DNA from: Lentisphaerae bacterium GWF2_38_69
Lineage (GTDB): Bacteria; Verrucomicrobiota; Lentisphaeria; Victivallales; GWF2-38-69
Length of the DNA: 64,000 nucleotides
NCBI GenBank assembly: GCA_001803205.1
Contig: MHBE01000035.1
Location: 12,650-76,649 of the forward strand
Direction of reading: 5' to 3'
Numbering within the stretch: position 1 is the first letter of the stretch; each line of letters begins with the position of its first letter. The notes under the pieces were generated by a model. That model made no database searches and was not told the origin of the DNA. It worked only from the letters and a program-made list of their open reading frames with translations. Positions 42,821 through 53,499 of this stretch are shown here, piece after piece. The position numbers were made by a program, and so were the translations under genes.

Positions 42821-43717
42821 ATGAGAAATGTAGTAAGGGTTCTATTCTTTTTAATTCTGACATTTTACTGTGTCTTATCTTATTCCGAACAGGTAAATGT
42901 CTATGTTCTGAACACAGGAGACATACATGAATCTTCGAAATATCTAAAAAAAATAAAATCTTATGTAGATATAACGAGAACCAACCATCCTGGTTGTGTG
43001 ATTTTGCTCGATGCAGGAGACATGCTTACCCAATTCCCTTTTTCAAAATATGTTTCACCACAGGATCGTAAAACCCGTGACTTGGCATCAACTACGCCAA
43101 AGGGTGAAAAGATGCTCGAATGGGCATCAACAATGAAATATGACGCCATACTCATAGGAAATCATGATATGATTGCTGGAGCAAATATTCTGCAGAAGCT
43201 CCTGAACAGATATAACCTTCCTTTAATAGCCGCTAACCTTAGCCATCCCAGCCTGTACCTTTCTAGATACAAAATAGTGCAATTAAACTTTCGTCTTAAA
43301 ACAGGCAAAGCTGTTTCTATCAGGGTCGGAATAATAGGAATATCCGATCAAGACCAGAAGGATTATCATTTCCCGAATAAAGCCGATAAGGAAAAATTAA
43401 AAACTTATCCTGTTTACAATCCAACCATAAATAAGATAATAGATGAAGTTGCTAAACAATCAGACTTTATTATTCTCTTGAGCCATAACTGGGATAATGT
43501 TGACAGAGACTCTGTTTCAGCTCTGAAGAGTAACAAAATATGCGCAATCATCGGCGGGCACTCTCATAAACTTCTAAATGAAAAGGACAATGGAAAAACC
43601 CTAATCAAATCCGGTGTCCACGGAAGCAATGTCGGCTGCACAAAAATAACATGGGATAGCGATGCACATAAAGTATTAACGGTAACTGCCGAGAATAAAC
43701 CGATGAAGGAGGAATAA
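42821..43717 (+). CDS. Secreted metallophosphoesterase (5'-nucleotidase N-terminal domain only)
   Basis: Signal peptide; DIHE, DAGD, GNHD, LSH, GGHSH motifs; no C-terminal 5'-NT domain. Confidence 0.8.
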   Translation: MRNVVRVLFFLILTFYCVLSYSEQVNVYVLNTGDIHESSKYLKKIKSYVDITRTNHPGCVILLDAGDMLTQFPFSKYVSPQDRKTRDLASTTPKGEKMLEWASTMKYDAILIGNHDMIAGANILQKLLNRYNLPLIAANLSHPSLYLSRYKIVQLNFRLKTGKAVSIRVGIIGISDQDQKDYHFPNKADKEKLKTYPVYNPTINKIIDEVAKQSDFIILLSHNWDNVDRDSVSALKSNKICAIIGGHSHKLLNEKDNGKTLIKSGVHGSNVGCTKITWDSDAHKVLTVTAENKPMKEE

Positions 43718-44404
43718 ATGAAGAAATATTTACTTTTCATTTTTATATTATTAACTGGTTTTATAACTTCTGCTCTTGCCGATACATCAGAGCAAATCTA
43801 TTTTTTAGCCATGGATCTGCCGCAGGATACAGATCAAAGCATAGTAAATGACTGTCAGATAAAAATCAGGGAATTAATAAAGAAAAATGCGCCGGAATAT
43901 ACGGACAAAATTCTTTATCACACTCCTGACAATATCCATATCAGCCTCATACGATTTAACGAAATACATCCTGACGCTCTCTTGAGGAATTATATCCAGC
44001 TCTTCAAAAATGATGCCAGGTATCTTCCCGACAGAAACATCGCAAATAAAATAAGAGATGCAAGATTAAATGTAACTCATACTGGTTTTATCGTTTACGA
44101 ATTCCCTGAACCTGTTACTCTCACTAAATTTGTAAATATTCTTTTGAATGACCTTAAGAAAAATAAATTATATTATAAAGATTCTGACTTTAATGAAGGA
44201 GGAAAAATATACCCTCACTTCAGTGTAGGATATTTCAATCCAAACGAAGTCAGCGTTGATACAATGAAAGAGATACTTAAAGGCAAAGTCTCGGCGCCGA
44301 AATGCAACTCTTTTCGCCTTAATGAGTTTATTTTAATGCATTCTGAAAAGCTTACAAAACCTCTTACATACAGCAGAGTCTATACTTTTAAAAAACCTAA
44401 ATAA
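43718..44404 (+). CDS. Secreted 2H phosphoesterase-like protein
   Basis: Signal peptide; two HxS motifs (HISL, PHFSV) about 90 aa apart; YFLAMDLP N-terminal strand. Confidence 0.65.
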   Translation: MKKYLLFIFILLTGFITSALADTSEQIYFLAMDLPQDTDQSIVNDCQIKIRELIKKNAPEYTDKILYHTPDNIHISLIRFNEIHPDALLRNYIQLFKNDARYLPDRNIANKIRDARLNVTHTGFIVYEFPEPVTLTKFVNILLNDLKKNKLYYKDSDFNEGGKIYPHFSVGYFNPNEVSVDTMKEILKGKVSAPKCNSFRLNEFILMHSEKLTKPLTYSRVYTFKKPK

Positions 44405-44446
44405 CGGTTCTGGAGCCTTACAAACTTGTCAGAAAAATACTAAGAT

Positions 44447-45073
44447 ATGAAGCAAAAATCAAAAATACTGAACTTCTCTGAGGATTTTATAAGACTGGAG
44501 TATGTAGAAAGCGCGGAAACCTGCGTCCTAACTGAACAGACGATTGTTGTAAATCTGAGAGACAGGGACTCTAAAAATGATAGTAAACTATTAAAACCCT
44601 TCAAGTCAGCGGTATATTCCAACATAAAATTCAAAAATGTTGAAAACTTGCTTTTCATCACCTTAAAAACCGAATTGTTCTCCAATAAAGGTTTTCCTTT
44701 CTCAAAAGAAATCATGAGTTCATGGAAGCAGGTATATGAAGTTTTCCCTGTTCCAAGTCTTAAGAATATAAAACTCTGGAGGTCGGAGAAAGAAAGGATA
44801 GGAAAGATCGAACTTAATTTGTGGTTTGCATCTGCCGGAACAAACTGCGGAATCCACAACGAACATGATTTCAGTGAAATACATGCACAGATATTCGGTC
44901 TGGGCCGGATTCAGATATTTCATAATAAAGAGTTTTCTTCATTGCATCAGGAGATTTATCTGGGTCCGGGATATACACATGATCCCCTTTGCAGTGAAAC
45001 TAAAATTTATCCTTACCATCAATACTACGCCGACACCGACTGCCTCTGGCTCGCTATAGAAATCTATGACTAG
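44447..45073 (+). CDS. Hypothetical protein with cupin-like C-terminus
   Basis: CGIHNEHDFSEIHAQI.G.G and YPYHQY metal-binding-like motifs. Confidence 0.55.
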   Translation: MKQKSKILNFSEDFIRLEYVESAETCVLTEQTIVVNLRDRDSKNDSKLLKPFKSAVYSNIKFKNVENLLFITLKTELFSNKGFPFSKEIMSSWKQVYEVFPVPSLKNIKLWRSEKERIGKIELNLWFASAGTNCGIHNEHDFSEIHAQIFGLGRIQIFHNKEFSSLHQEIYLGPGYTHDPLCSETKIYPYHQYYADTDCLWLAIEIYD

Positions 45074-45169
45074 CCAGCGTTAAACCAAAATCCTACAGCC
45101 AATTCGGATAAAAAACATTTTATCATCTTGATATTACATTATAAAGCCGTTATATAGTCTACGAACTCT

Positions 45170-45295
45170 CAGTTGCTTTAATATGGGTAAGACCTGTGAG
45201 AATCAGGCACAGTCGCGCTACGGTATTGAAAACTCTCGTTTCTCTAAGTCCGAAAACCATAAGTAACTGTGTTTTGTCGCGTTAACAAAAAGGAG
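45170..45295 (+). promoter_or_regulatory. Cobalamin-type riboswitch (compact variant)
   Basis: CAGTTGCTT/AAGTAACTG closing stem; GGGTAA; CCTG-TGAGAAT-CAGG hairpin; ACAGTCGCGCTACGGTA; B12-box-like AAGTCCGAAAACC; downstream GTCGCG-containing hairpin next to AAGGAG. Confidence 0.65.
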
Positions 45296-45300
45296 AAACT

Positions 45301-45405
45301 ATGACAAAAGCACACTTCCATCTTATCCCGTCACTATTTTCATGTTTGAAACTCACTGCTCTATTCAGTGCTACAACCAACAGCAATAGGAGTGGTATTT
45401 TATGA
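45301..45405 (+). CDS. Putative 34-aa leader peptide (MTKAHFHLIPSLFSCLKLTALFSATTNSNRSGIL)
   Basis: AAGGAG RBS; its TGA overlaps the ATG of the next gene (ATGA). Confidence 0.4.
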   Translation: MTKAHFHLIPSLFSCLKLTALFSATTNSNRSGIL

Positions 45406-46601
45406 ATCGTAAAACTACTTATCTCTCAATGCTCTTTCTATTTTTACTGCCGGTATTTTCTTTTGCACAATTAAGAATCGGAATTATCGGAGACCAGACA
45501 GGTTCCACTGATTTAGCCAAGTCTTATACTGTTTTGAGTGAAGGCTGCCAGGCCATTGCAGCGGCTAATCCTGATATTGTGCTGCATGTGGGCGATATTG
45601 TTGAAAGCTCTCAGAGCGACAGTGACATTAAGGACTCTTTTGAGCAGGCTGTAAGTTATTTAAACGTTATGAACATTCCATGGTATATAACTGCCGGAGA
45701 CCATGATGTGAATCCTCCTAATGATTATACTCCCGGAACAAAAAACACAGAGAAAGCAGATTTATTCCTTAATCTCTTAAGAAAAGAATACTCAAAAAGA
45801 GCTTTATGTGTAATCCCGGAAAAGTTATATTACAGCTTTGATTATCATGGCTATCATTTCATATGCTTATACTCAGAAGATTATCTCAGAACTGATCCTC
45901 GCTGGGGAAATATTTTCATGGATAAAATCTCTGATGAACAATTCAGCTGGCTTGAAGAAGATTTGAATAACTCCGCGTCGGCTAAAGGCATAATTGTCCT
46001 GATTCATCAGCCAATGTGGTATAATATTACAGGATGGAAACGAGTTCATAATCTCCTCAGGAAACATCATGTGCTTGCAGTTATTGCCGGCCATTTTCAC
46101 TACAATCAGGACGAAGGATATACAGACTCAATTCGCTATATCGTTGTAGGTTCGACAGGCGGGACAATCAAAAACGCTTCTGAAAATGCCGGAGGCATAT
46201 ATCACGTGTCACTGCTAACACTAGATGACAATAATAATATTACCATACAATTAATCCCTCTGGAAAATTACAGTTACGATAAGTTTTCCGACAGAGAGAA
46301 TATGGACAGGATACAGGCAATAGATACAATGTTAGGCGGTATAGCATGGACGCCCAATGCCACGATTAAAGGCAATCCTATAGATATTCCCGTAAATATC
46401 TATTCTCTTGCTAAACTAGGTGGATGGCAATTATTGTATAAGAATGTCTCACCAGGTATTGGAGTGGCTATATCTAACTTATCGCTCGTAGAACTGAACA
46501 GCGACACCAATCGGCCTTCTGATCTGCAGGCAATGAAAGTCCAATTCATCAACGAACAAGGCCATACATTGTGGGACTCAATGATTTTTGGTTCAAATTA
46601 A
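45402..46601 (+). CDS. Secreted calcineurin-like metallophosphoesterase
   Basis: Signal peptide; GDQ, HVGDIV, AGDHD, IHQP, AGHFH motifs. Confidence 0.85.
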   Translation: MNRKTTYLSMLFLFLLPVFSFAQLRIGIIGDQTGSTDLAKSYTVLSEGCQAIAAANPDIVLHVGDIVESSQSDSDIKDSFEQAVSYLNVMNIPWYITAGDHDVNPPNDYTPGTKNTEKADLFLNLLRKEYSKRALCVIPEKLYYSFDYHGYHFICLYSEDYLRTDPRWGNIFMDKISDEQFSWLEEDLNNSASAKGIIVLIHQPMWYNITGWKRVHNLLRKHHVLAVIAGHFHYNQDEGYTDSIRYIVVGSTGGTIKNASENAGGIYHVSLLTLDDNNNITIQLIPLENYSYDKFSDRENMDRIQAIDTMLGGIAWTPNATIKGNPIDIPVNIYSLAKLGGWQLLYKNVSPGIGVAISNLSLVELNSDTNRPSDLQAMKVQFINEQGHTLWDSMIFGSN

Positions 46602-48172: not shown

Positions 48173-49009
48173 ATGAAATTAAATGTACTGATAGACAACA
48201 ATACTTTGATAGACAGATATTTCCTTGGTGAGCCAGGTGTATCATATCTGATTCAGGACGAGGACAAACAGATATTATTCGATACAGGATATTCCAATAC
48301 CTTCATCACTAATGCCCGGAAGTTAAATTTAAATCTCATGCAAAGCGATTTTATAGTTCTTTCCCATGGACATATGGATCATACATGGGGACTTGACGGC
48401 CTTATCAAATTATATACAGAAGCAAAGATAGAATCTCTGCCTTACCAAAAGCCAACTCTGGTAACTCATCCTGAAACATTTCAAACAAAAACAGCAGATG
48501 GAATTGATATCGGCTGCATCCTTACAGAATCGATGCTGCATCAGCATTTTGAAATGAAGCTATCAAAGAAACCTTTCCATCTGACAGACAGACTGATTTT
48601 TCTTGGAGAGATAGAAAGATTAAATGATTTTGAAAACAAAGAACCAGTCGGAAAAGTCCATTTCAATAGCAAGACTGAAGATGATTTTTTACTTGACGAC
48701 TCGGCTTTAGCATATAAAGGGAAGAACGGGCTAGTAATCATCACCGGATGCTCTCACTCAGGAATATGCAACATTATTCAATACGCCAAAAAAGTCTGCA
48801 ATGAAGATAAAGTCATTGATGTGATAGGAGGTTTTCATCTGATGAAGCCTTCGAAAAAACAACTTAGCGGAACTCTCGATTATTTTAAAAAATTGAAAGC
48901 CAAAGAAATACACGCATGCCATTGCGTTGATCTTACTTCAAAAATCTCTCTCTCAAAAGCGGCAAATTTGAAAGATGTTGGAGTCGGATTATCACTGAAT
49001 TATAAATAG
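48173..49009 (+). CDS. Metallo-beta-lactamase fold hydrolase
   Basis: LFDTG, LSHGHMDHTWGL, ITGCSHSG, IGGFHL, ACHC. Confidence 0.88.
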   Translation: MKLNVLIDNNTLIDRYFLGEPGVSYLIQDEDKQILFDTGYSNTFITNARKLNLNLMQSDFIVLSHGHMDHTWGLDGLIKLYTEAKIESLPYQKPTLVTHPETFQTKTADGIDIGCILTESMLHQHFEMKLSKKPFHLTDRLIFLGEIERLNDFENKEPVGKVHFNSKTEDDFLLDDSALAYKGKNGLVIITGCSHSGICNIIQYAKKVCNEDKVIDVIGGFHLMKPSKKQLSGTLDYFKKLKAKEIHACHCVDLTSKISLSKAANLKDVGVGLSLNYK

Positions 49010-49012
49010 TCG

Positions 49013-49777
49013 TTAGAGATGCAGCCTGCCAATATAGACATCTGTCCGATATTCCATTCTCACCATTCCTCCTGTATTGTATATATCGAAAAGTTCTTTC
49101 AGTTTCGCGGTAACTTTTAATCTATCTTCAGTTCCTTCTTTTGGAGTATATGAAGAGGAGAAGAGTCTTCCTTTCAGGCCTTCGAAATTAAAAACCTGAA
49201 ATTGCGGAAAATGAGCGGTTTTCATATCCTTATCGCCAAGAAAACCTGCTACCAAGTCTGAAGAAATATTCTTATGGCTGACCTTGCAGTACTCAGGCAT
49301 TGAATGCAAAAGTTCTTCATAAGCTTCGAGGAAGGGTTTTCCTTTTGTCGCCCTGTCATTCCATACAAATAGAACCCATTTGGGTTGCTTTAATATGCGC
49401 CAAAATTCAATTTTAGCCTTGGGTTTATCAAACCAGTGAAACGCCTGAAAAGCTGTCACTATATCTATGGTTTTATCAGGCAAACATGTGCTCTCGGCAC
49501 ATCCGTTCACACAGTGGAATAACGGGTTGTCTTGAAGAGACTCCTTGGCTGCTTTTTGCATATCGGAATTCGGCTCAACTGCATAAACACTGCATTTGAA
49601 TCCGTCAAGGAGGAGTTTTGTTGATATTCCTGTTCCGGAGCCTATGTCAGCAATGCTCCAATTCTCTTTCACAGGGCAATTTTCTCTAATGAATTCTATC
49701 AAATCAGGAGGATAAGTAGGCCTGAACTTTTTGTAATCGTCAGCTCTGGCTGAAAATCTTGTTTTTGAATCTTCCAT
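49013..49777 (-). CDS. Class I SAM-dependent methyltransferase
   Basis: RFS..ADDYKKFRPTYP, ADIGSGTGIS, AVEPN, AFQAFHWFD. Confidence 0.9.
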   Translation of the reverse strand: MEDSKTRFSARADDYKKFRPTYPPDLIEFIRENCPVKENWSIADIGSGTGISTKLLLDGFKCSVYAVEPNSDMQKAAKESLQDNPLFHCVNGCAESTCLPDKTIDIVTAFQAFHWFDKPKAKIEFWRILKQPKWVLFVWNDRATKGKPFLEAYEELLHSMPEYCKVSHKNISSDLVAGFLGDKDMKTAHFPQFQVFNFEGLKGRLFSSSYTPKEGTEDRLKVTAKLKELFDIYNTGGMVRMEYRTDVYIGRLHL

Positions 49778-49797
49778 ACTTTTAAAAAATGAAAGTA

Positions 49798-50670
49798 TTA
49801 AATGATACAACTAATTATAAGCAAAGAGAGTATAGCAACATATTGGATGAGAAAACTTCTTATTGTTGGAAGAAAGAGGGCCGGCTTCTGATAGGTTTTC
49901 ATTCCTTTCAGGAAAGATAAAACTGCGGCAGGAATACATAGGAGGGAAAAACAGTTAAGCCAGTGTATATCTCCTGACAATATGAACACAATCAAAATAA
50001 CGAAGTTAATCATATTAATGGTAAAAGCCAGTATGAGCGCCCTCCTCTGCCCCAATCTGACACATATGTTGCGTTTTCCGACTAATGAATCCTGAATGAA
50101 ATCAGGAATCTCATTTAAAACAGCAATCGCAAATAAAAGCAATGCCGGAACTAAAGAAATAAAAAACACTTTAACTTCTAATTGCCTGGTTTGAACAAAA
50201 TAGCTCCCGCCAACCATGAAAGGACCATATGCAAGAGCGATTATAAGTTCGCCAAGCCCCCTATAGGTAAGCTTTATCGGAGGACACAGATAAAAGAGCG
50301 CCGCAAGAAAACCGAAAAAGGCAAATGCAATTATCGCAAATCCTATTGTATAGGTAAGATATAGCCCTATCAGAAAAGCTATAAAAAAAGCCCCTACCCC
50401 AACAATAAAAGTTTTGAGAGTAATGGGCTTAGGTTCGCATTGGAAAATTCTGTCAGTTCCAAGCTGCCAGTCAAAATATTCGTTAAAGCTTTCTACTCCG
50501 AGCAAACAAAAAAGAATACCGACAAACCCGACAAGGAACAAATAAAAATGAAACTCTCCCTGCAGAAAAAAAGCGAGAGCCGCCCCCAGCAGGTAAGGGA
50601 AAAGCCCTGCGATAAGCATAAATCTGTATCTGCAGAGCTTTATAAGATTCTTTATCAGACTTGTTTCCAT
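49798..50670 (-). CDS. UbiA/MenA-family prenyltransferase
   Basis: Asp-rich motifs NEYFD...GTD and NEIPDFIQDSLVGKR; Y..PP.KL.YRGLGE; multiple TM helices. Confidence 0.88.
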   Translation of the reverse strand: METSLIKNLIKLCRYRFMLIAGLFPYLLGAALAFFLQGEFHFYLFLVGFVGILFCLLGVESFNEYFDWQLGTDRIFQCEPKPITLKTFIVGVGAFFIAFLIGLYLTYTIGFAIIAFAFFGFLAALFYLCPPIKLTYRGLGELIIALAYGPFMVGGSYFVQTRQLEVKVFFISLVPALLLFAIAVLNEIPDFIQDSLVGKRNICVRLGQRRALILAFTINMINFVILIVFILSGDIHWLNCFSLLCIPAAVLSFLKGMKTYQKPALFLPTIRSFLIQYVAILSLLIISCII

Positions 50671-51638
50671 GTATTGGCTTCTTTGAGAAGCTCCGGGTTT
50701 TCGATGACCCTATTAGTAAATTCGACTACTTCGGGTTTTCTCCATGCTTTTTTATATTTTTCCCAAAGTTCCGCAAGGGAATTCTCACGCAAATTACCAC
50801 AGACAAAAGGAAGAGGTCCGATGAGTTTAACATTGCCGTTGGGTATGACAAGCAAGCTTGCCGCCGGATGATGCAAACGGTACCTAAGCTCTTCGATAAC
50901 ATCATACGGATAATAGTATATCTTCATCTTTCCTTCATATTTGAGCTGTTTTTCCTGAAGCACCTTGAAGAAAGCCTCATATTCAGCCTGGGACGGGTTG
51001 AGCTTATCCCAGTTCTGGGCTGCGCGGCCGATACGCATGATTTTCCCTGTATAAAAACCGTATATGCCCATTTCATAGGCCATTTCGATCATATCGCCTG
51101 TTTCATGAATATTGAATTTTGTAGGAACAAAAACTATTTCAGTATTCACTCCGGCATCCACAAGGAGTCTGCATGCATTGAGTGTTTTTTCATAATCCCC
51201 GTTGACTCTCATTGTTTCAAAAGTCTGTGGGGTTCTACCGTCCACACTAATCTGAACAGATCTGAAGCCTAGTTCTGCAAAGCGTCTGGCCTCTTCAGGG
51301 CCTATAAAATGGCCGTTGGTCTCGACTTTCAGGCTTATATTATTTTTCCTGAAGAATTCGCATATCTCGAAGAAATCAGGATGAAGCATTGGTTCGCCTC
51401 CGGATATAGCGACATAAGGGATATTCAAAGCTGCAATCTGATTGCAGAAATCTTTAACTTCTTCTTTATTGAGCTCATTTTCCATTGTATGCCCTGCTTC
51501 TTCGCAGCAATGCAGGCATTCCAGATTGCAAATAGAATTCAATTGCCATGCAATAAAAAGAGGAGCATCGTAATCTTCGAAATTAAATCCTGTAAGATTG
51601 ATTTCTTCTTTTGTAGGGCGGAGTTTATTTTCTATCAT
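50655..51638 (-). CDS. Radical SAM peptide-maturase-like enzyme (PqqE/MftC-like) with Cys-poor SPASM/twitch-like tail
   Basis: CNLECLHC (CxxxCxxC), SGGEP, ETNG, VQISVDG; tail LLVIPNGNVK...GNLRENSLAELW. Confidence 0.88.
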   Translation of the reverse strand: MIENKLRPTKEEINLTGFNFEDYDAPLFIAWQLNSICNLECLHCCEEAGHTMENELNKEEVKDFCNQIAALNIPYVAISGGEPMLHPDFFEICEFFRKNNISLKVETNGHFIGPEEARRFAELGFRSVQISVDGRTPQTFETMRVNGDYEKTLNACRLLVDAGVNTEIVFVPTKFNIHETGDMIEMAYEMGIYGFYTGKIMRIGRAAQNWDKLNPSQAEYEAFFKVLQEKQLKYEGKMKIYYYPYDVIEELRYRLHHPAASLLVIPNGNVKLIGPLPFVCGNLRENSLAELWEKYKKAWRKPEVVEFTNRVIENPELLKEANTWKQV

Positions 51639-51898
51639 TATTCAGTTTCTCCTGCAATAATACCGTTCTGTGTAAGAGATGCTATATATTCATTTACATC
51701 TTTTTGTATCACTGCCTTATCGCAATTATATATTTCAGCAAGCTCTCTGACTATCTCATCAGCAGCCTTGCCTTCGCCAATTCCTTTTAAGATATCAGCG
51801 CCGATATCATTGGTAATAAAAAGTTTCTCCTTAAGAGTTTCGAATATCACGGCGCCAAACTTCTCAGTACGCCACTTGACATGTCTTTTAAATTCCAT
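51638..51898 (-). CDS. PqqD/MftB-like RiPP recognition element
   Basis: VKWRTEKFGAVIFE..NDIGADIL..IVRELAEIY..DVNEYIASLTQNGII; GGAGG RBS before ATG 51898. Confidence 0.85.
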   Translation of the reverse strand: MEFKRHVKWRTEKFGAVIFETLKEKLFITNDIGADILKGIGEGKAADEIVRELAEIYNCDKAVIQKDVNEYIASLTQNGIIAGETE

Positions 51899-51941: not shown

Positions 51942-51973
51942 AAAAAAATCCGGCAAAAAATCTATTTGCCGGA
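51942..51973 (-). terminator. Terminator/attenuator between precursor gene and maturases
   Basis: TCCGGCAAA/TTTGCCGGA 9-bp stem followed by U7 on the minus strand. Confidence 0.75.
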
Positions 51974-51999
51974 AATTATTAAATTTACAAATGTGTAAA

Positions 52000-52143
52000 T
52001 CAGGTAAACCTGATATAAGGCTGTGCCATAACGCGCTCTGAAACATCTTCCAGAGTAGGTTTGACCCATTCTTTCTTCCTGATTGTATGCTCTTTGGTCA
52101 GTGATTCTTTTTTCTGTTTCAATTCAGTTTTAATTTTGTCCAT
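52000..52143 (-). CDS. Putative RiPP precursor peptide, 47 aa (MDKIKTELKQKKESLTKEHTIRKKEWVKPTLEDVSERVMAQPYIRFT)
   Basis: Translated by hand (below the ORF track cut-off); AAGGGG RBS; WxxPxL RRE-binding leader motif; directly upstream of the PqqD-like gene. Confidence 0.8.
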   Translation of the reverse strand: MDKIKTELKQKKESLTKEHTIRKKEWVKPTLEDVSERVMAQPYIRFT

Positions 52144-52581
52144 ATAAGACCCCTTATACTAATAAATTGTCTTTGCACTTCCAGTCGCAGCTAATCTTCT
52201 TATCGTTTCTATAGAATAAGCATATTAAAGTACAAATCAACACGGGCACTAAATTATTGCCTCTAAATCGGATTCATATAGATTTCATCCTACCGGCTAA
52301 GAGTCTTTTAACATATAAATATTATGACAATTAATCAATTCCTGCCGACCCTGTCTTTTTAACTTGAGTTGTTTCGTTATAATAGTAAAATAATTTTTTA
52401 ATCAAAGCCCATTAAGATAAGCTAAAATCATGCATATTGGAATCTTGGATATGACCGGTATTCAACCAGGTTTTCCTAATAGTATTTATGTCGTCATGAA
52501 TGCCTTTATGCTTGCTCAGATAATAATCACATCTATTTATCTAAGAAAGAACTGGTGGTTAAAACTAAAGGACTAATAACA

Positions 52582-53499
52582 ATGGATCTAAATAGAATAA
52601 ATCTCAATTTACTGGTCGTGCTTGACGCTATCATAGAGGAAAAGAATATCTCTCTTGCAGCTAAAAGACTGAACCTGACCCAGCCCGCTGTCAGCCACAT
52701 GCTAAAACATCTCAGGACAATTCTTGATGATGATCTTATACTAAGAGGCCCGTTCAACAAGATGATCCTGACAAAAAAGGCTCAGGATATGAAAATGCCG
52801 GTCAGGAAAGTACTAAACGACATATCCGGTATTTTTACGGAAACAAAATACTTTGACCCCGAATATGATAAGTTCACCTTTACTATGGGCATGCCAGACA
52901 TTGCATCTGTCCTTTTAATCCCGAAATTAAATACGGCTATAGGCAACTTTTCCGGCAATGTAAAGATCAAGATAAAAAACATCCTTGACATAACAAGTTA
53001 TGAAGACATGATACATGACAATCTTGACCTGGCTATTGGGAACTTTTCTATTTCCTCACAAAATATAATGTCTGAGAGTTTATTCTCCACAGAACTGGTC
53101 TGTGTCGCGGACAAATCCCATGAAGTGTTCAAAAGCAAAAAGCTTACCTTAGATAAGTTTTTAGAATTCCCTCATCTGCAGCTTGTTTACAGAGAAGAGT
53201 TTCAAACCTCTTATGATGAGATTATCGGAAAGGCAACTGAATGCTCCAGGAAAATATTAATAACAATTCCCAATATAATGACAGCTCTCCATTCTTTAAA
53301 AAATTCCAACAGCCTGTGCATTGCCCATAAAAATATTGCAGAGAAGTTTTCAACTCTTCTGGATTTGAATTACAGAGACCTTCCTTTCAACACGCCTATA
53401 ATGAATTATTACCTATATTGGAAGAGAGAAGACAATGCCTCTAAACCTTTCACATGGATGAAAAAGTTGATTATGGATAGTTTCAGCAGTCATAGATAA
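52582..53499 (+). CDS. LysR-family transcriptional regulator
   Basis: NLNLLVVLDAI..ISLAAKRLNLTQPAVSH HTH; LDLAIG substrate-binding domain. Confidence 0.92.
   Translation: MDLNRINLNLLVVLDAIIEEKNISLAAKRLNLTQPAVSHMLKHLRTILDDDLILRGPFNKMILTKKAQDMKMPVRKVLNDISGIFTETKYFDPEYDKFTFTMGMPDIASVLLIPKLNTAIGNFSGNVKIKIKNILDITSYEDMIHDNLDLAIGNFSISSQNIMSESLFSTELVCVADKSHEVFKSKKLTLDKFLEFPHLQLVYREEFQTSYDEIIGKATECSRKILITIPNIMTALHSLKNSNSLCIAHKNIAEKFSTLLDLNYRDLPFNTPIMNYYLYWKREDNASKPFTWMKKLIMDSFSSHR

Follow-up and report, generated by a model that had tools for sequence, protein, structure and literature searches.

The window analysed here, a stretch of 64,000 nucleotides from Lentisphaerae bacterium GWF2_38_69 (contig MHBE01000035.1, positions 12,650 to 76,649 of the forward strand), carries on its minus strand a short, unannotated open reading frame (ORF) which is a genuine, strongly selected precursor peptide gene. 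It heads an operon that further encodes a PqqD-family peptide chaperone, a radical S-adenosylmethionine (SAM) enzyme (rSAM) and a MenA-like membrane prenyltransferase of the UbiA family, and these four genes constitute a cassette that is widespread but undescribed and to which neither Pfam nor NCBIfam gives a name. Probably, though this is well short of certain, peptide, PqqD, rSAM and UbiA together form a pathway to a membrane-anchored, peptide-derived redox molecule. No description of the cassette was found in the openly searchable literature.

The ORF is translated to MDKIKTELKQKKESLTKEHTIRKKEWVKPTLEDVSERVMAQPYIRFT. This product is composed of a variable Lys/Glu-rich N-terminus, a leader motif W26-x-K-P-x-L-E-D-V-S and an invariant V-M-A-Q-P-Y-I-R-F-T tail, and it is the conservation of the peptide, not the reading frame itself, that places the ORF beyond chance. 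A word-seeded search returned 16 homologous peptides of 46–53 amino acids (aa), in whose alignment W26, P29, L31–S35 and V38–T47 are invariant and the N-terminal half varies freely. The hidden Markov model (HMM) built from this alignment was run over 1.84 billion cluster representatives and found 96 of them at E ≤ 0.001, 50 of which lie at E ≤ 1e-10. The tail MAQPYIRFT ends 81 of the 96 representatives and MAQPFIRFT ends four; among the other 11, Met is changed to Ile once and to Thr twice, Gln to Arg, Thr to Ser and Tyr to Cys are seen once each, and the rest comprise a read-through, a spurious repeat protein and three tails that diverge. The pattern W-x2-P-x13-[YF]IRFT stands at the very C-terminus in 84/96 representatives, and in the peptide family 22 residues are nearly invariant across phyla. 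An initial annotation of this DNA had forecast such a logo, with an invariant MAQPYIRFT and a variable N-terminus, and both the 16-peptide alignment and the HMM set came out as predicted. Four proteins (P0085, P0088, P0090 and P0106) form a subgroup in which the MAQPFIRFT tail goes together with a K-P-E-[LM] variant of the leader.

The family was also traced through metagenomes, where a pattern scan of contigs gave at least 571 stretches confirmed by tblastn among at least 598 matches listed; 80 of the confirmed stretches were kept as loci, and the locus set used below is the window plus 82 loci. Tail invariance in this set is partly built in, because the patterns were words of the peptide; the HMM search is free of this bias. 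At the DNA level the nine tail codons and the stop are written as 62 distinct strings among the 83 copies, with all four codons of Ala, Pro and Thr and all six of Arg in use, and since so many strings encode one amino-acid tail, selection acts on the protein. One could regard the ORF as a chance open frame, given that it is short and that no Pfam or NCBIfam family matches it at E ≤ 0.01 (both collections, NCBIfam as of June 2026, being without a model for the peptide), and wherever sources give its homologues any name, they are called 'hypothetical protein'. Such a view, to which hardly any probability can be given, would have to account for amino-acid conservation with free synonymous change across hundreds of loci, for the conserved synteny with PqqD, rSAM and UbiA genes and for a good ribosome-binding site; it is refuted by the tblastn-confirmed stretches, the codon variety, the HMM tails and the synteny. 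The initial annotation had taken the ORF for an unannotated precursor peptide, and conservation, synteny and the absence of any family-model match bear this out: at syntenic loci (PqqD-rSAM-UbiA) the conservation is indeed that of the amino acids.

The organization of the operon and of its surroundings is given in Table 1. The ORF, the AAGGGG site and the 9-bp hairpin with T7 all lie where the initial annotation had put them, and the core of its view of the peptide is supported; what it omitted is the partner that defines the family, the MenA-like prenyltransferase encoded two genes downstream. The genes are tightly packed, with overlaps of 1 nt between PqqD and rSAM, 16 nt between rSAM and UbiA and 13 nt between UbiA and the methyltransferase. 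The promoter-like site upstream is weak evidence, as the scanned region holds 10 such sites against 13.2 expected from shuffles. No RNA family of Rfam was found in the window.

Table 1. Features of the precursor peptide operon and its flanks (positions in the window)
Feature	Position	Strand	Description
Precursor peptide gene	52143..52000	minus	47 aa plus stop; ORF read directly
Ribosome-binding site AAGGGG	52155..52150	minus	6 bases before the ATG at 52143; read directly
Promoter-like site TCGGCA-16-CATAAT with TG	52321..52348	minus	about 180 nt upstream of the peptide start; 9/12 matches
Intrinsic-terminator-like hairpin + T7	51973..51942	minus	between peptide and PqqD genes; terminator scan
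PqqD-family peptide chaperone (RiPP recognition element, RRE)	51898..51638	minus	86 aa; preceded by GGAGG; PF05402; 20 homologues aligned
Radical SAM enzyme	51638..50655	minus	327 aa; CX3CX2C at C37/C41/C44; without Cys-rich SPASM motif
MenA-like UbiA-family membrane prenyltransferase	50670..49798	minus	290 aa; both Asp-rich motifs
Class I SAM-dependent methyltransferase	49810..49013	minus	265 aa; last operon gene
LysR-family regulator	52555..53499	plus	divergent; possible local regulator
MBL-fold gene	48173..49009	plus	convergent to operon

Two architectures of the cassette were distinguished: architecture A, to which the window belongs, is peptide-PqqD-rSAM-UbiA with one or two rSAM genes, and architecture B is PqqD-rSAM-UbiA-rSAM-peptide-rSAM. 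In the locus set, 32 loci were scored A and two more are A with a PqqD ORF called too long (L046, L049); 44 are B, two are too short to judge and three are lone peptide copies (L013, L036, L058). Both rSAM and UbiA are present in 10/10 A-loci with at least 2.6 kb downstream, and both PqqD and UbiA in 18/18 B-loci with at least 3.8 kb upstream, so that peptide, PqqD, rSAM and UbiA occur together in 28/28 loci with enough flank. None of the other 82 loci has a homologue (E ≤ 1e-5) of the methyltransferase, LysR, MBL-fold or thioesterase gene of the window; the methyltransferase is locus-specific and stands outside the conserved core. In genome G582 the four cassette genes lie alone between cobalamin-salvage and TonB-receptor genes. 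Since the four genes stand alone there and the accessory genes are not conserved, the unit consists of peptide, PqqD, rSAM(s) and UbiA. The same gene order is seen in a metagenome-assembled genome (MAG) of WOR-3, whose rSAM is 73% identical to the window's, and in a Planctomycetota MAG with two tandem rSAM genes (66% identity). This Planctomycetota carrier (L002 511-2565; G419 contigs C243 and C199) has two clade-A rSAM paralogues in tandem, with identities of 66% and 63% to the window enzyme, and its two peptide gene copies lie on different contigs.

The enzymes of the cassette are recognizable as members of large families, while no NCBIfam equivalog cut-off is reached by any enzyme of the operon. 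The PqqD protein scores 45.5 bits on PF05402 (cut-off 23.4) and reaches the cut-off of no NCBIfam PqqD subtype; the W-x-K-P-x-L leader noted in the initial annotation does stand ahead of an RRE gene. The window rSAM scores 133 bits on AhbD (cut-off 500), 131 on the MftC model TIGR03962 (265), 107 on GeoRSP (400) and 80.7 on PqqE TIGR02109 (381). The MftC model is the first or second best NCBIfam match of the cassette rSAM, and on the rSAMs of other loci it gives 100–137 bits. Among solved structures the window rSAM is closest to SkfB (6efn, 1e-18) and PqqE (PDB 6c8v, 1e-8), which match over the core barrel only. The radical SAM motif CX3CX2C is found in 75/77 aligned cassette rSAMs, with no further universal Cys and no seven-cysteine SPASM motif. 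A quick tree separates the rSAMs by position into four clades, A (support 98), B1 (99), B2 (81) and B3 (100), a few long-branch rows being probably mis-called ORFs, and the window rSAM is placed in clade A next to the WOR-3 sequence. In clade A single Cys residues are retained at 45, 156 and 280, those at 65, 93 and 214 being less constant, and the other clades keep different scattered ones. Because only the triad is universal, the cassette rSAM is without the auxiliary-cluster ligands of its characterized peptide cross-linking relatives; the AhbC/AhbD-like enzymes encoded on contig 27 of the same genome do show Cys-rich SPASM tails. There (C27:5946-9085; L108 2447-5585) two tandem full-length SPASM radical SAM genes, of 388 and 343 aa with Cys-rich C-termini, are followed by a 354-aa protein which by eye resembles an AsnC/Lrp-type siroheme decarboxylase; the set looks like the alternative, siroheme-dependent haem pathway.

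The UbiA enzyme scores 71.9 bits on PF01040 (cut-off 34.2), and across 28 cassette UbiA proteins conservation is at least 90% at each of the residues D67, D73, N186, D190, D194 and K199. Its best NCBIfam matches are MenA models, both below cut-off (TIGR00751, 62.4 vs 102.15 bits; NF004751, 101.8 vs 264), and the MenA equivalog cut-offs are likewise missed by the UbiA proteins at other loci. Annotation as menaquinone enzymes is to be avoided for the MenA-like genes of these cassettes.

The hairpin that follows the peptide gene has a stem (51973..51949) of nine pairs, five of them G-C, with a loop of 7, and its T7 runs to 51942, features that predict an intrinsic terminator. The 105-nt spacer between peptide and PqqD genes folds at -22.1 kcal/mol (z = -2.6), and 4/200 shuffles fold as well. 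At the window locus partial termination, giving more precursor mRNA, as the initial annotation states for pqqA, would be a reasonable reading, but a different role, as an element of RNA stability or processing, or no role at all, as a chance feature of an AT-rich spacer, retains an appreciable, if minor, likelihood. It is favoured by the presence, in a simple scan, of a hairpin with U-tract between peptide and PqqD genes in only 5/32 A-type loci, by the 13/23 distinct spacers that are not unusually structured (z > -2) and by the background of the terminator scan (7 sites in 4.5 kb vs 3.2 expected). Yet the hairpin of the window is a textbook one, and very stable hairpins recur at the same place: 10/23 distinct spacers of at least 60 nt fold at z < -2 (e.g., -6.8, -5.3, -4.9), by long hairpins unrelated in sequence. 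From the 10/23 spacers and the 5/32 loci it follows that stable structure after the precursor gene is recurrent, not universal, and usually without a U-tract.

The genes around the cassette were compared by clustering all locus ORFs by homology and naming cluster representatives with Pfam. The most frequent neighbour is an FAD/NAD-binding (often Fe-S) oxidoreductase (17 loci), followed by an Rnf/Nqr D/E subunit (9 loci), an NqrC-type FMN-binding subunit and a polyprenyl synthase (8 loci each), NqrB and a multihaem cytochrome c (7 each), NqrA/RnfC-like genes (6), MoeA (4) and, at three loci each, NapC/NirT, an MtrB/PioB porin, cytochrome b561 and a methyltransferase. In L049 the cassette is located between nqr membrane-subunit genes and an NqrF-like gene, and in L026 it comes after HdrA/MvhD-like genes and before a polyprenyl synthase gene. 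No exporter, immunity gene or dedicated leader protease is recurrent among the neighbour clusters. The initial annotation had expected a cofactor precursor, which fits both the extreme conservation and these respiratory neighbourhoods. The lone peptide copies have no PqqD, rSAM or UbiA on their contigs. One (L036, 1427-5798) stands between UbiU/UbiV-like U32 genes (UbiU 372 bits vs cut-off 440) and DUF169 plus polyprenyl synthase genes, another (L013, 3827-9456) has NuoE/F-like genes on one side and a HemN-family radical SAM gene on the other, and the third (L058) lies beside an endonuclease/exonuclease/phosphatase-family gene; their position beside redox genes suggests extra precursor copies placed at redox operons.

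The host genome (3.1 Mb, 95% complete, 37.6% G+C), DNA of which is present in groundwater metagenome runs, carries the cassette in single copy and with genome-like composition (39.4% G+C vs 38% for the window). No rSAM orthologue was found in 40 relatives of the same genus, family or order: the best match among these relatives lies at E = 2.6e-26 with an identity of 27%, and none among the matches listed exceeds 36% identity. The peptide occurs in 1/401 sampled genomes of the phylum, namely the window's own, and in 2/301 sampled Planctomycetota, one of which has two copies. The cassette is a lone acquisition in its phylum. Because of these counts and the lack of an orthologue in relatives, it is, among genomes, a rare accessory unit that spreads horizontally, whereas metagenomes of soil, sediment and groundwater contain it in abundance. 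Plasmid carriage was considered and dismissed, as none of 425 matching plasmid records shows more than 34% identity to the rSAM.

The cassette prenyltransferase is the only UbiA-family gene of this genome, in which MqnA/D and Nqr were not found and no MenB exceeds its cut-off; three NuoH-family genes and a cytochrome bd oxidase (CydA, 514 bits) are present. A compact respiratory island of the genome (C32:56193-62999; L100 2194-9000) comprises, in this order, genes for a pyridine-nucleotide-disulfide oxidoreductase of NDH-2/SQR-like type, a polyprenyl diphosphate synthase, cytochrome bd (cydA, cydB) and an ArcB-like hybrid sensor kinase. It is unusual for a polyprenyl synthase gene to lie directly upstream of the cytochrome bd genes, an arrangement in keeping with a dedicated prenylated carrier. 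That the genome has a quinol oxidase but no recognizable quinone pathway also agrees, as a weak argument, with the cassette supplying the carrier. In a genome of the same genus (G002, C5:2311-5534; L099) a MenA-like UbiA gene, its product 28% identical to the window's, is paired with the gene of a full-SPASM, AhbD-like rSAM (392 aa; 267 bits on AhbD vs cut-off 500), upstream of which lie an FmdB zinc-ribbon gene and a gene for a 236-aa protein without family; no MAQPYIRFT peptide was found in that genome, and the pair may be a second, unrelated system. Elsewhere in the window (42821-46601, plus strand) three ORFs of 298, 228 and 399 aa have no relation to the cassette; judged by eye, those of 298 and 399 aa show metallophosphoesterase-like motifs (GDxHE, GDxVE, GHxH) and all three have signal-peptide-like hydrophobic N-termini.

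From the gene content, conservation and contexts observed we infer the whole of the following chemistry. The leader W-x-K-P-x-L-E-D-V-S would dock on PqqD, as that of PqqA does, and the rSAM would then abstract a hydrogen in the invariant tail, most likely to form a C-C link to the aromatic ring that lies 17 residues after the Trp. The partner in this cross-link could not be Glu, since Met replaces it. The MenA-like enzyme may attach a polyprenyl chain to the modified aromatic group, either on the peptide or after trimming, and in the window operon the methyltransferase may methylate the product. The product would be a membrane-anchored redox-active molecule that serves quinone-type enzymes, i.e., Nqr/Rnf, Hdr-like and cytochrome complexes at other loci and, in the host genome, cytochrome bd with the NDH-2/SQR-like enzyme. 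The hairpin with T7 would stop part of the transcripts and so yield more precursor mRNA than enzyme mRNA. A bolder form of this proposal sees in the peptide the ribosomally encoded source of the head group for polyprenylated membrane electron carriers of a new class: the rSAM enzyme(s) would convert the invariant MAQP(Y/F)IRFT tail into a redox-active aromatic unit, which the MenA-like enzyme would prenylate and, in the host, the methyltransferase would methylate. Such a route to a quinone-like respiratory carrier would be independent of chorismate, would move between phyla as a four-gene cassette inserted into Nqr/Rnf, Hdr and cytochrome operons and would give the host cytochrome bd its sole carrier; we put it forward only tentatively and would sooner doubt than accept it.

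Several observations weigh against a peptide-derived redox molecule. Tyr is replaced by Phe in 4/96 representatives and Met by Ile or Thr in 3/96, so that there is no strict requirement for the phenol oxygen or for the Met, a point that accords poorly with a simple Tyr-derived, PQQ-like quinone (PQQ, pyrroloquinoline quinone). No protease or ring hydroxylase is fixed at the cassette loci, where the four genes alone travel as a unit, and a free small-molecule quinone would for this reason need outside help. The rSAM is without the auxiliary-cluster cysteines of its peptide cross-linking relatives, and its chemistry may differ from that of PqqE. The match of the peptide to PqqA in hhalign comprises 13 leader columns (P = 0.005, probability 7%), so few that it carries little statistical weight. 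The rarity of the U-tract hairpin among A-type loci, given above, belongs here as well. As to the genomes, 16/40 relatives of the same order are without any UbiA-family gene and MqnA/D occur in 0/40; missing classical quinone genes are thus typical of the lineage, which makes the 'only prenyltransferase' argument weak, and the same counts weaken any test of the proposal that the cassette replaces a lost menaquinone pathway. The other three carrier genomes have 4–5 UbiA-family matches each, with no MenB over cut-off and no MqnA/D. Among sampled Planctomycetota MqnA/D are present in 91/151 and missing from 60/151, so their absence from the carriers of that phylum says little.

Two other accounts of the four genes have to be weighed. 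The product may be a lipidated peptide made by ribosomes and modified after translation (RiPP) with a non-redox role, i.e., a membrane-anchored or secreted prenylated signal, antibiotic or structural factor, in which UbiA alkylates the ring of the intact, rSAM-modified peptide. This would explain why the fixed set is limited to peptide, chaperone, rSAM and prenyltransferase and includes neither a protease nor an oxidase, and why Tyr can be Phe, as expected for ring C-alkylation or a cyclophane-type link and not for quinone chemistry; the patchy distribution (1/401 and 2/301 genomes) also resembles that of accessory natural-product clusters. However, the cores of bioactive RiPPs vary by lineage, whereas the cassette peptide has 22 residues that hardly vary across phyla; the neighbour clusters show no recurrent gene for an exporter, for immunity or for a leader protease, and the neighbours that do recur are respiratory and isoprenoid genes. 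We hold the lipidated, non-redox peptide to be unlikely, although it deserves attention.

Alternatively, the two halves of the cassette may be coupled in function and not in chemistry, with peptide, PqqD and rSAM making a soluble PQQ- or mycofactocin-like cofactor and the MenA-like enzyme making an ordinary prenylquinone from a non-peptide, possibly scavenged head group. The prenylquinone would then work with the soluble cofactor or re-oxidize the cluster-poor rSAM, an enzyme without auxiliary clusters to take the electron of an oxidative cross-link. That the best NCBIfam matches of the prenyltransferase are MenA models, and that polyprenyl synthase and UbiU-like genes, which fit normal quinone synthesis, lie nearby, would agree with this division of labour. 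Yet the MenA cut-offs are missed widely (62 vs 102 for TIGR00751; 102 vs 264 for NF004751), the four carrier genomes examined have no MenB over cut-off and no MqnA/D, and strict co-occurrence ties the prenyltransferase to the peptide, its gene being coupled in translation to that of the rSAM; we regard uncoupled chemistry as quite improbable.

To our knowledge, few cofactors derive from ribosomal peptides. The classic ones, PQQ and mycofactocin, are both soluble. The cassette joins the logic of peptide, chaperone and radical SAM enzyme to a membrane prenyltransferase and recurs within respiratory operons, and in its conservation the peptide resembles a cofactor precursor and not an antibiotic. 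Were its product a lipid-anchored redox molecule, a new kind of respiratory carrier would exist in widespread soil, sediment and groundwater bacteria, and the respiration of some genomes that have quinol oxidases but no recognizable quinone pathway would be explained. The system is small, with four genes and a 47-residue substrate, and gene callers leave the key peptide gene unnamed. What the window contributes is a lone acquisition with the sole UbiA gene of its genome beside cytochrome bd, an extra methyltransferase and a textbook internal terminator, as well as the Tyr/Phe and Met/Ile/Thr variants of the tail and the missing SPASM cysteines.

Among known systems several are related to the cassette in part. 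The W/YxxPxL motif of the leader had been compared with lasso peptides, a reading that was rejected, as neither a leader peptidase (B2) nor a lactam synthetase (C) is present in the operon and the lasso PqqD models give 38 vs 70 bits. GeoRSP (TIGR04302, TIGR04303) likewise combines a short rSAM (about 325 aa) with a free-standing PqqD, and the match is full-length but weak; identity with it was rejected, with 29.3 vs 100 and 106.6 vs 400 bits in the window and 57–98 vs 400 in eight rSAMs of other loci. Precursors of RiPPs with three-residue cyclophanes (triceptides) usually have repeated variable motifs and belong to natural-product clusters. The tail of the cassette peptide also holds an aromatic-X-Arg triplet, Y-I-R or F-I-R. 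An rSAM working with an RRE could join the ring to residue three of the triplet, and the exchange of Tyr and Phe fits ring-carbon chemistry; the cassette differs in its single invariant site, obligate prenyltransferase and respiratory context.

The prenyltransferase shares with the MenA/UbiA step of quinone synthesis its superfamily, both Asp-rich motifs and MenA models as best match. In the synthesis of menaquinone methylation follows prenylation; a SAM methyltransferase comes next in the operon of the window, and polyprenyl synthase and UbiU-like genes are frequent neighbours. The cassette gene, however, sits in a peptide-maturation operon and misses all MenA equivalog cut-offs, and the examined carrier genomes are without MenB over cut-off and without MqnA/D.

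Mycofactocin offers a closer parallel, namely a ribosomal peptide with an invariant Tyr-containing C-terminal core, a PqqD-like chaperone, an MftC-like rSAM, a sporadic, cassette-like distribution and cofactor-type logic. The core of MftA, which we take to be IDGMCGVY at the C-terminus, is a different one, since in the cassette the Tyr is internal and not C-terminal, and the rSAM remains far below the MftC cut-off (131 vs 265 bits). The cassette is moreover without genes of the MftD/E/F type, its tailoring enzyme is a membrane prenyltransferase and not a glycosyltransferase, and its partner genes encode membrane respiratory complexes. That the core is neither PqqA-like, having Met for the cross-linking Glu, nor MftA-like had been proposed in the initial annotation, and the alignment agrees.

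The comparison with PQQ was made by reading directly the pqq operon of Sinorhizobium meliloti pSymB (locus L101), whose PqqA begins, from an internal Met, with MAWHKPKFIEVSCAMEITRYAP. The cassette peptide and this PqqA have in common the leader W-x-K-P-x-[FL]-x-[DE]-V-S, an aromatic residue exactly 17 residues after the Trp (W26 to Y43 in the cassette peptide), a short tail after the aromatic residue and an extremely conserved core; in both systems a free-standing PqqD and a PqqE-related rSAM come after the small precursor. PqqE is reported to abstract a hydrogen from Glu16 of PqqA, Glu16 then being cross-linked to Tyr20, and PqqD to hold the leader (PMC10906245). The cassette peptide differs at this very position, with Met39 four residues before the Tyr in place of the Glu, and Met holds this place in 85/96 representatives (those with MAQP[YF]IRFT ends), so there is no Glu-X3-Tyr pair. 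The enzymes differ too: the PqqE equivalog TIGR02109 (80.7 vs 381 bits) and the PqqD model TIGR03859 (24.5 vs 46 bits) are both missed, the rSAM has no SPASM cysteines and a MenA-like prenyltransferase is obligate. A whole-genome search with the PqqA family PF08042 at E ≤ 10 gives no match to the ORF; tblastn with the Sinorhizobium proteins found neither PqqB nor PqqC in the genome, and the PqqC model has no match there, though none in control genomes either. The neighbouring MBL-fold gene was rejected as a PqqB analogue, as it is convergent, has no homologue at the other 82 loci and does not have PqqB among its NCBIfam matches. Because the PqqA model finds no match and neither PqqB nor PqqC was found in the genome, the cassette is, as judged by its genes, not a pathway of PQQ synthesis, yet it appears to work like the first step of one.

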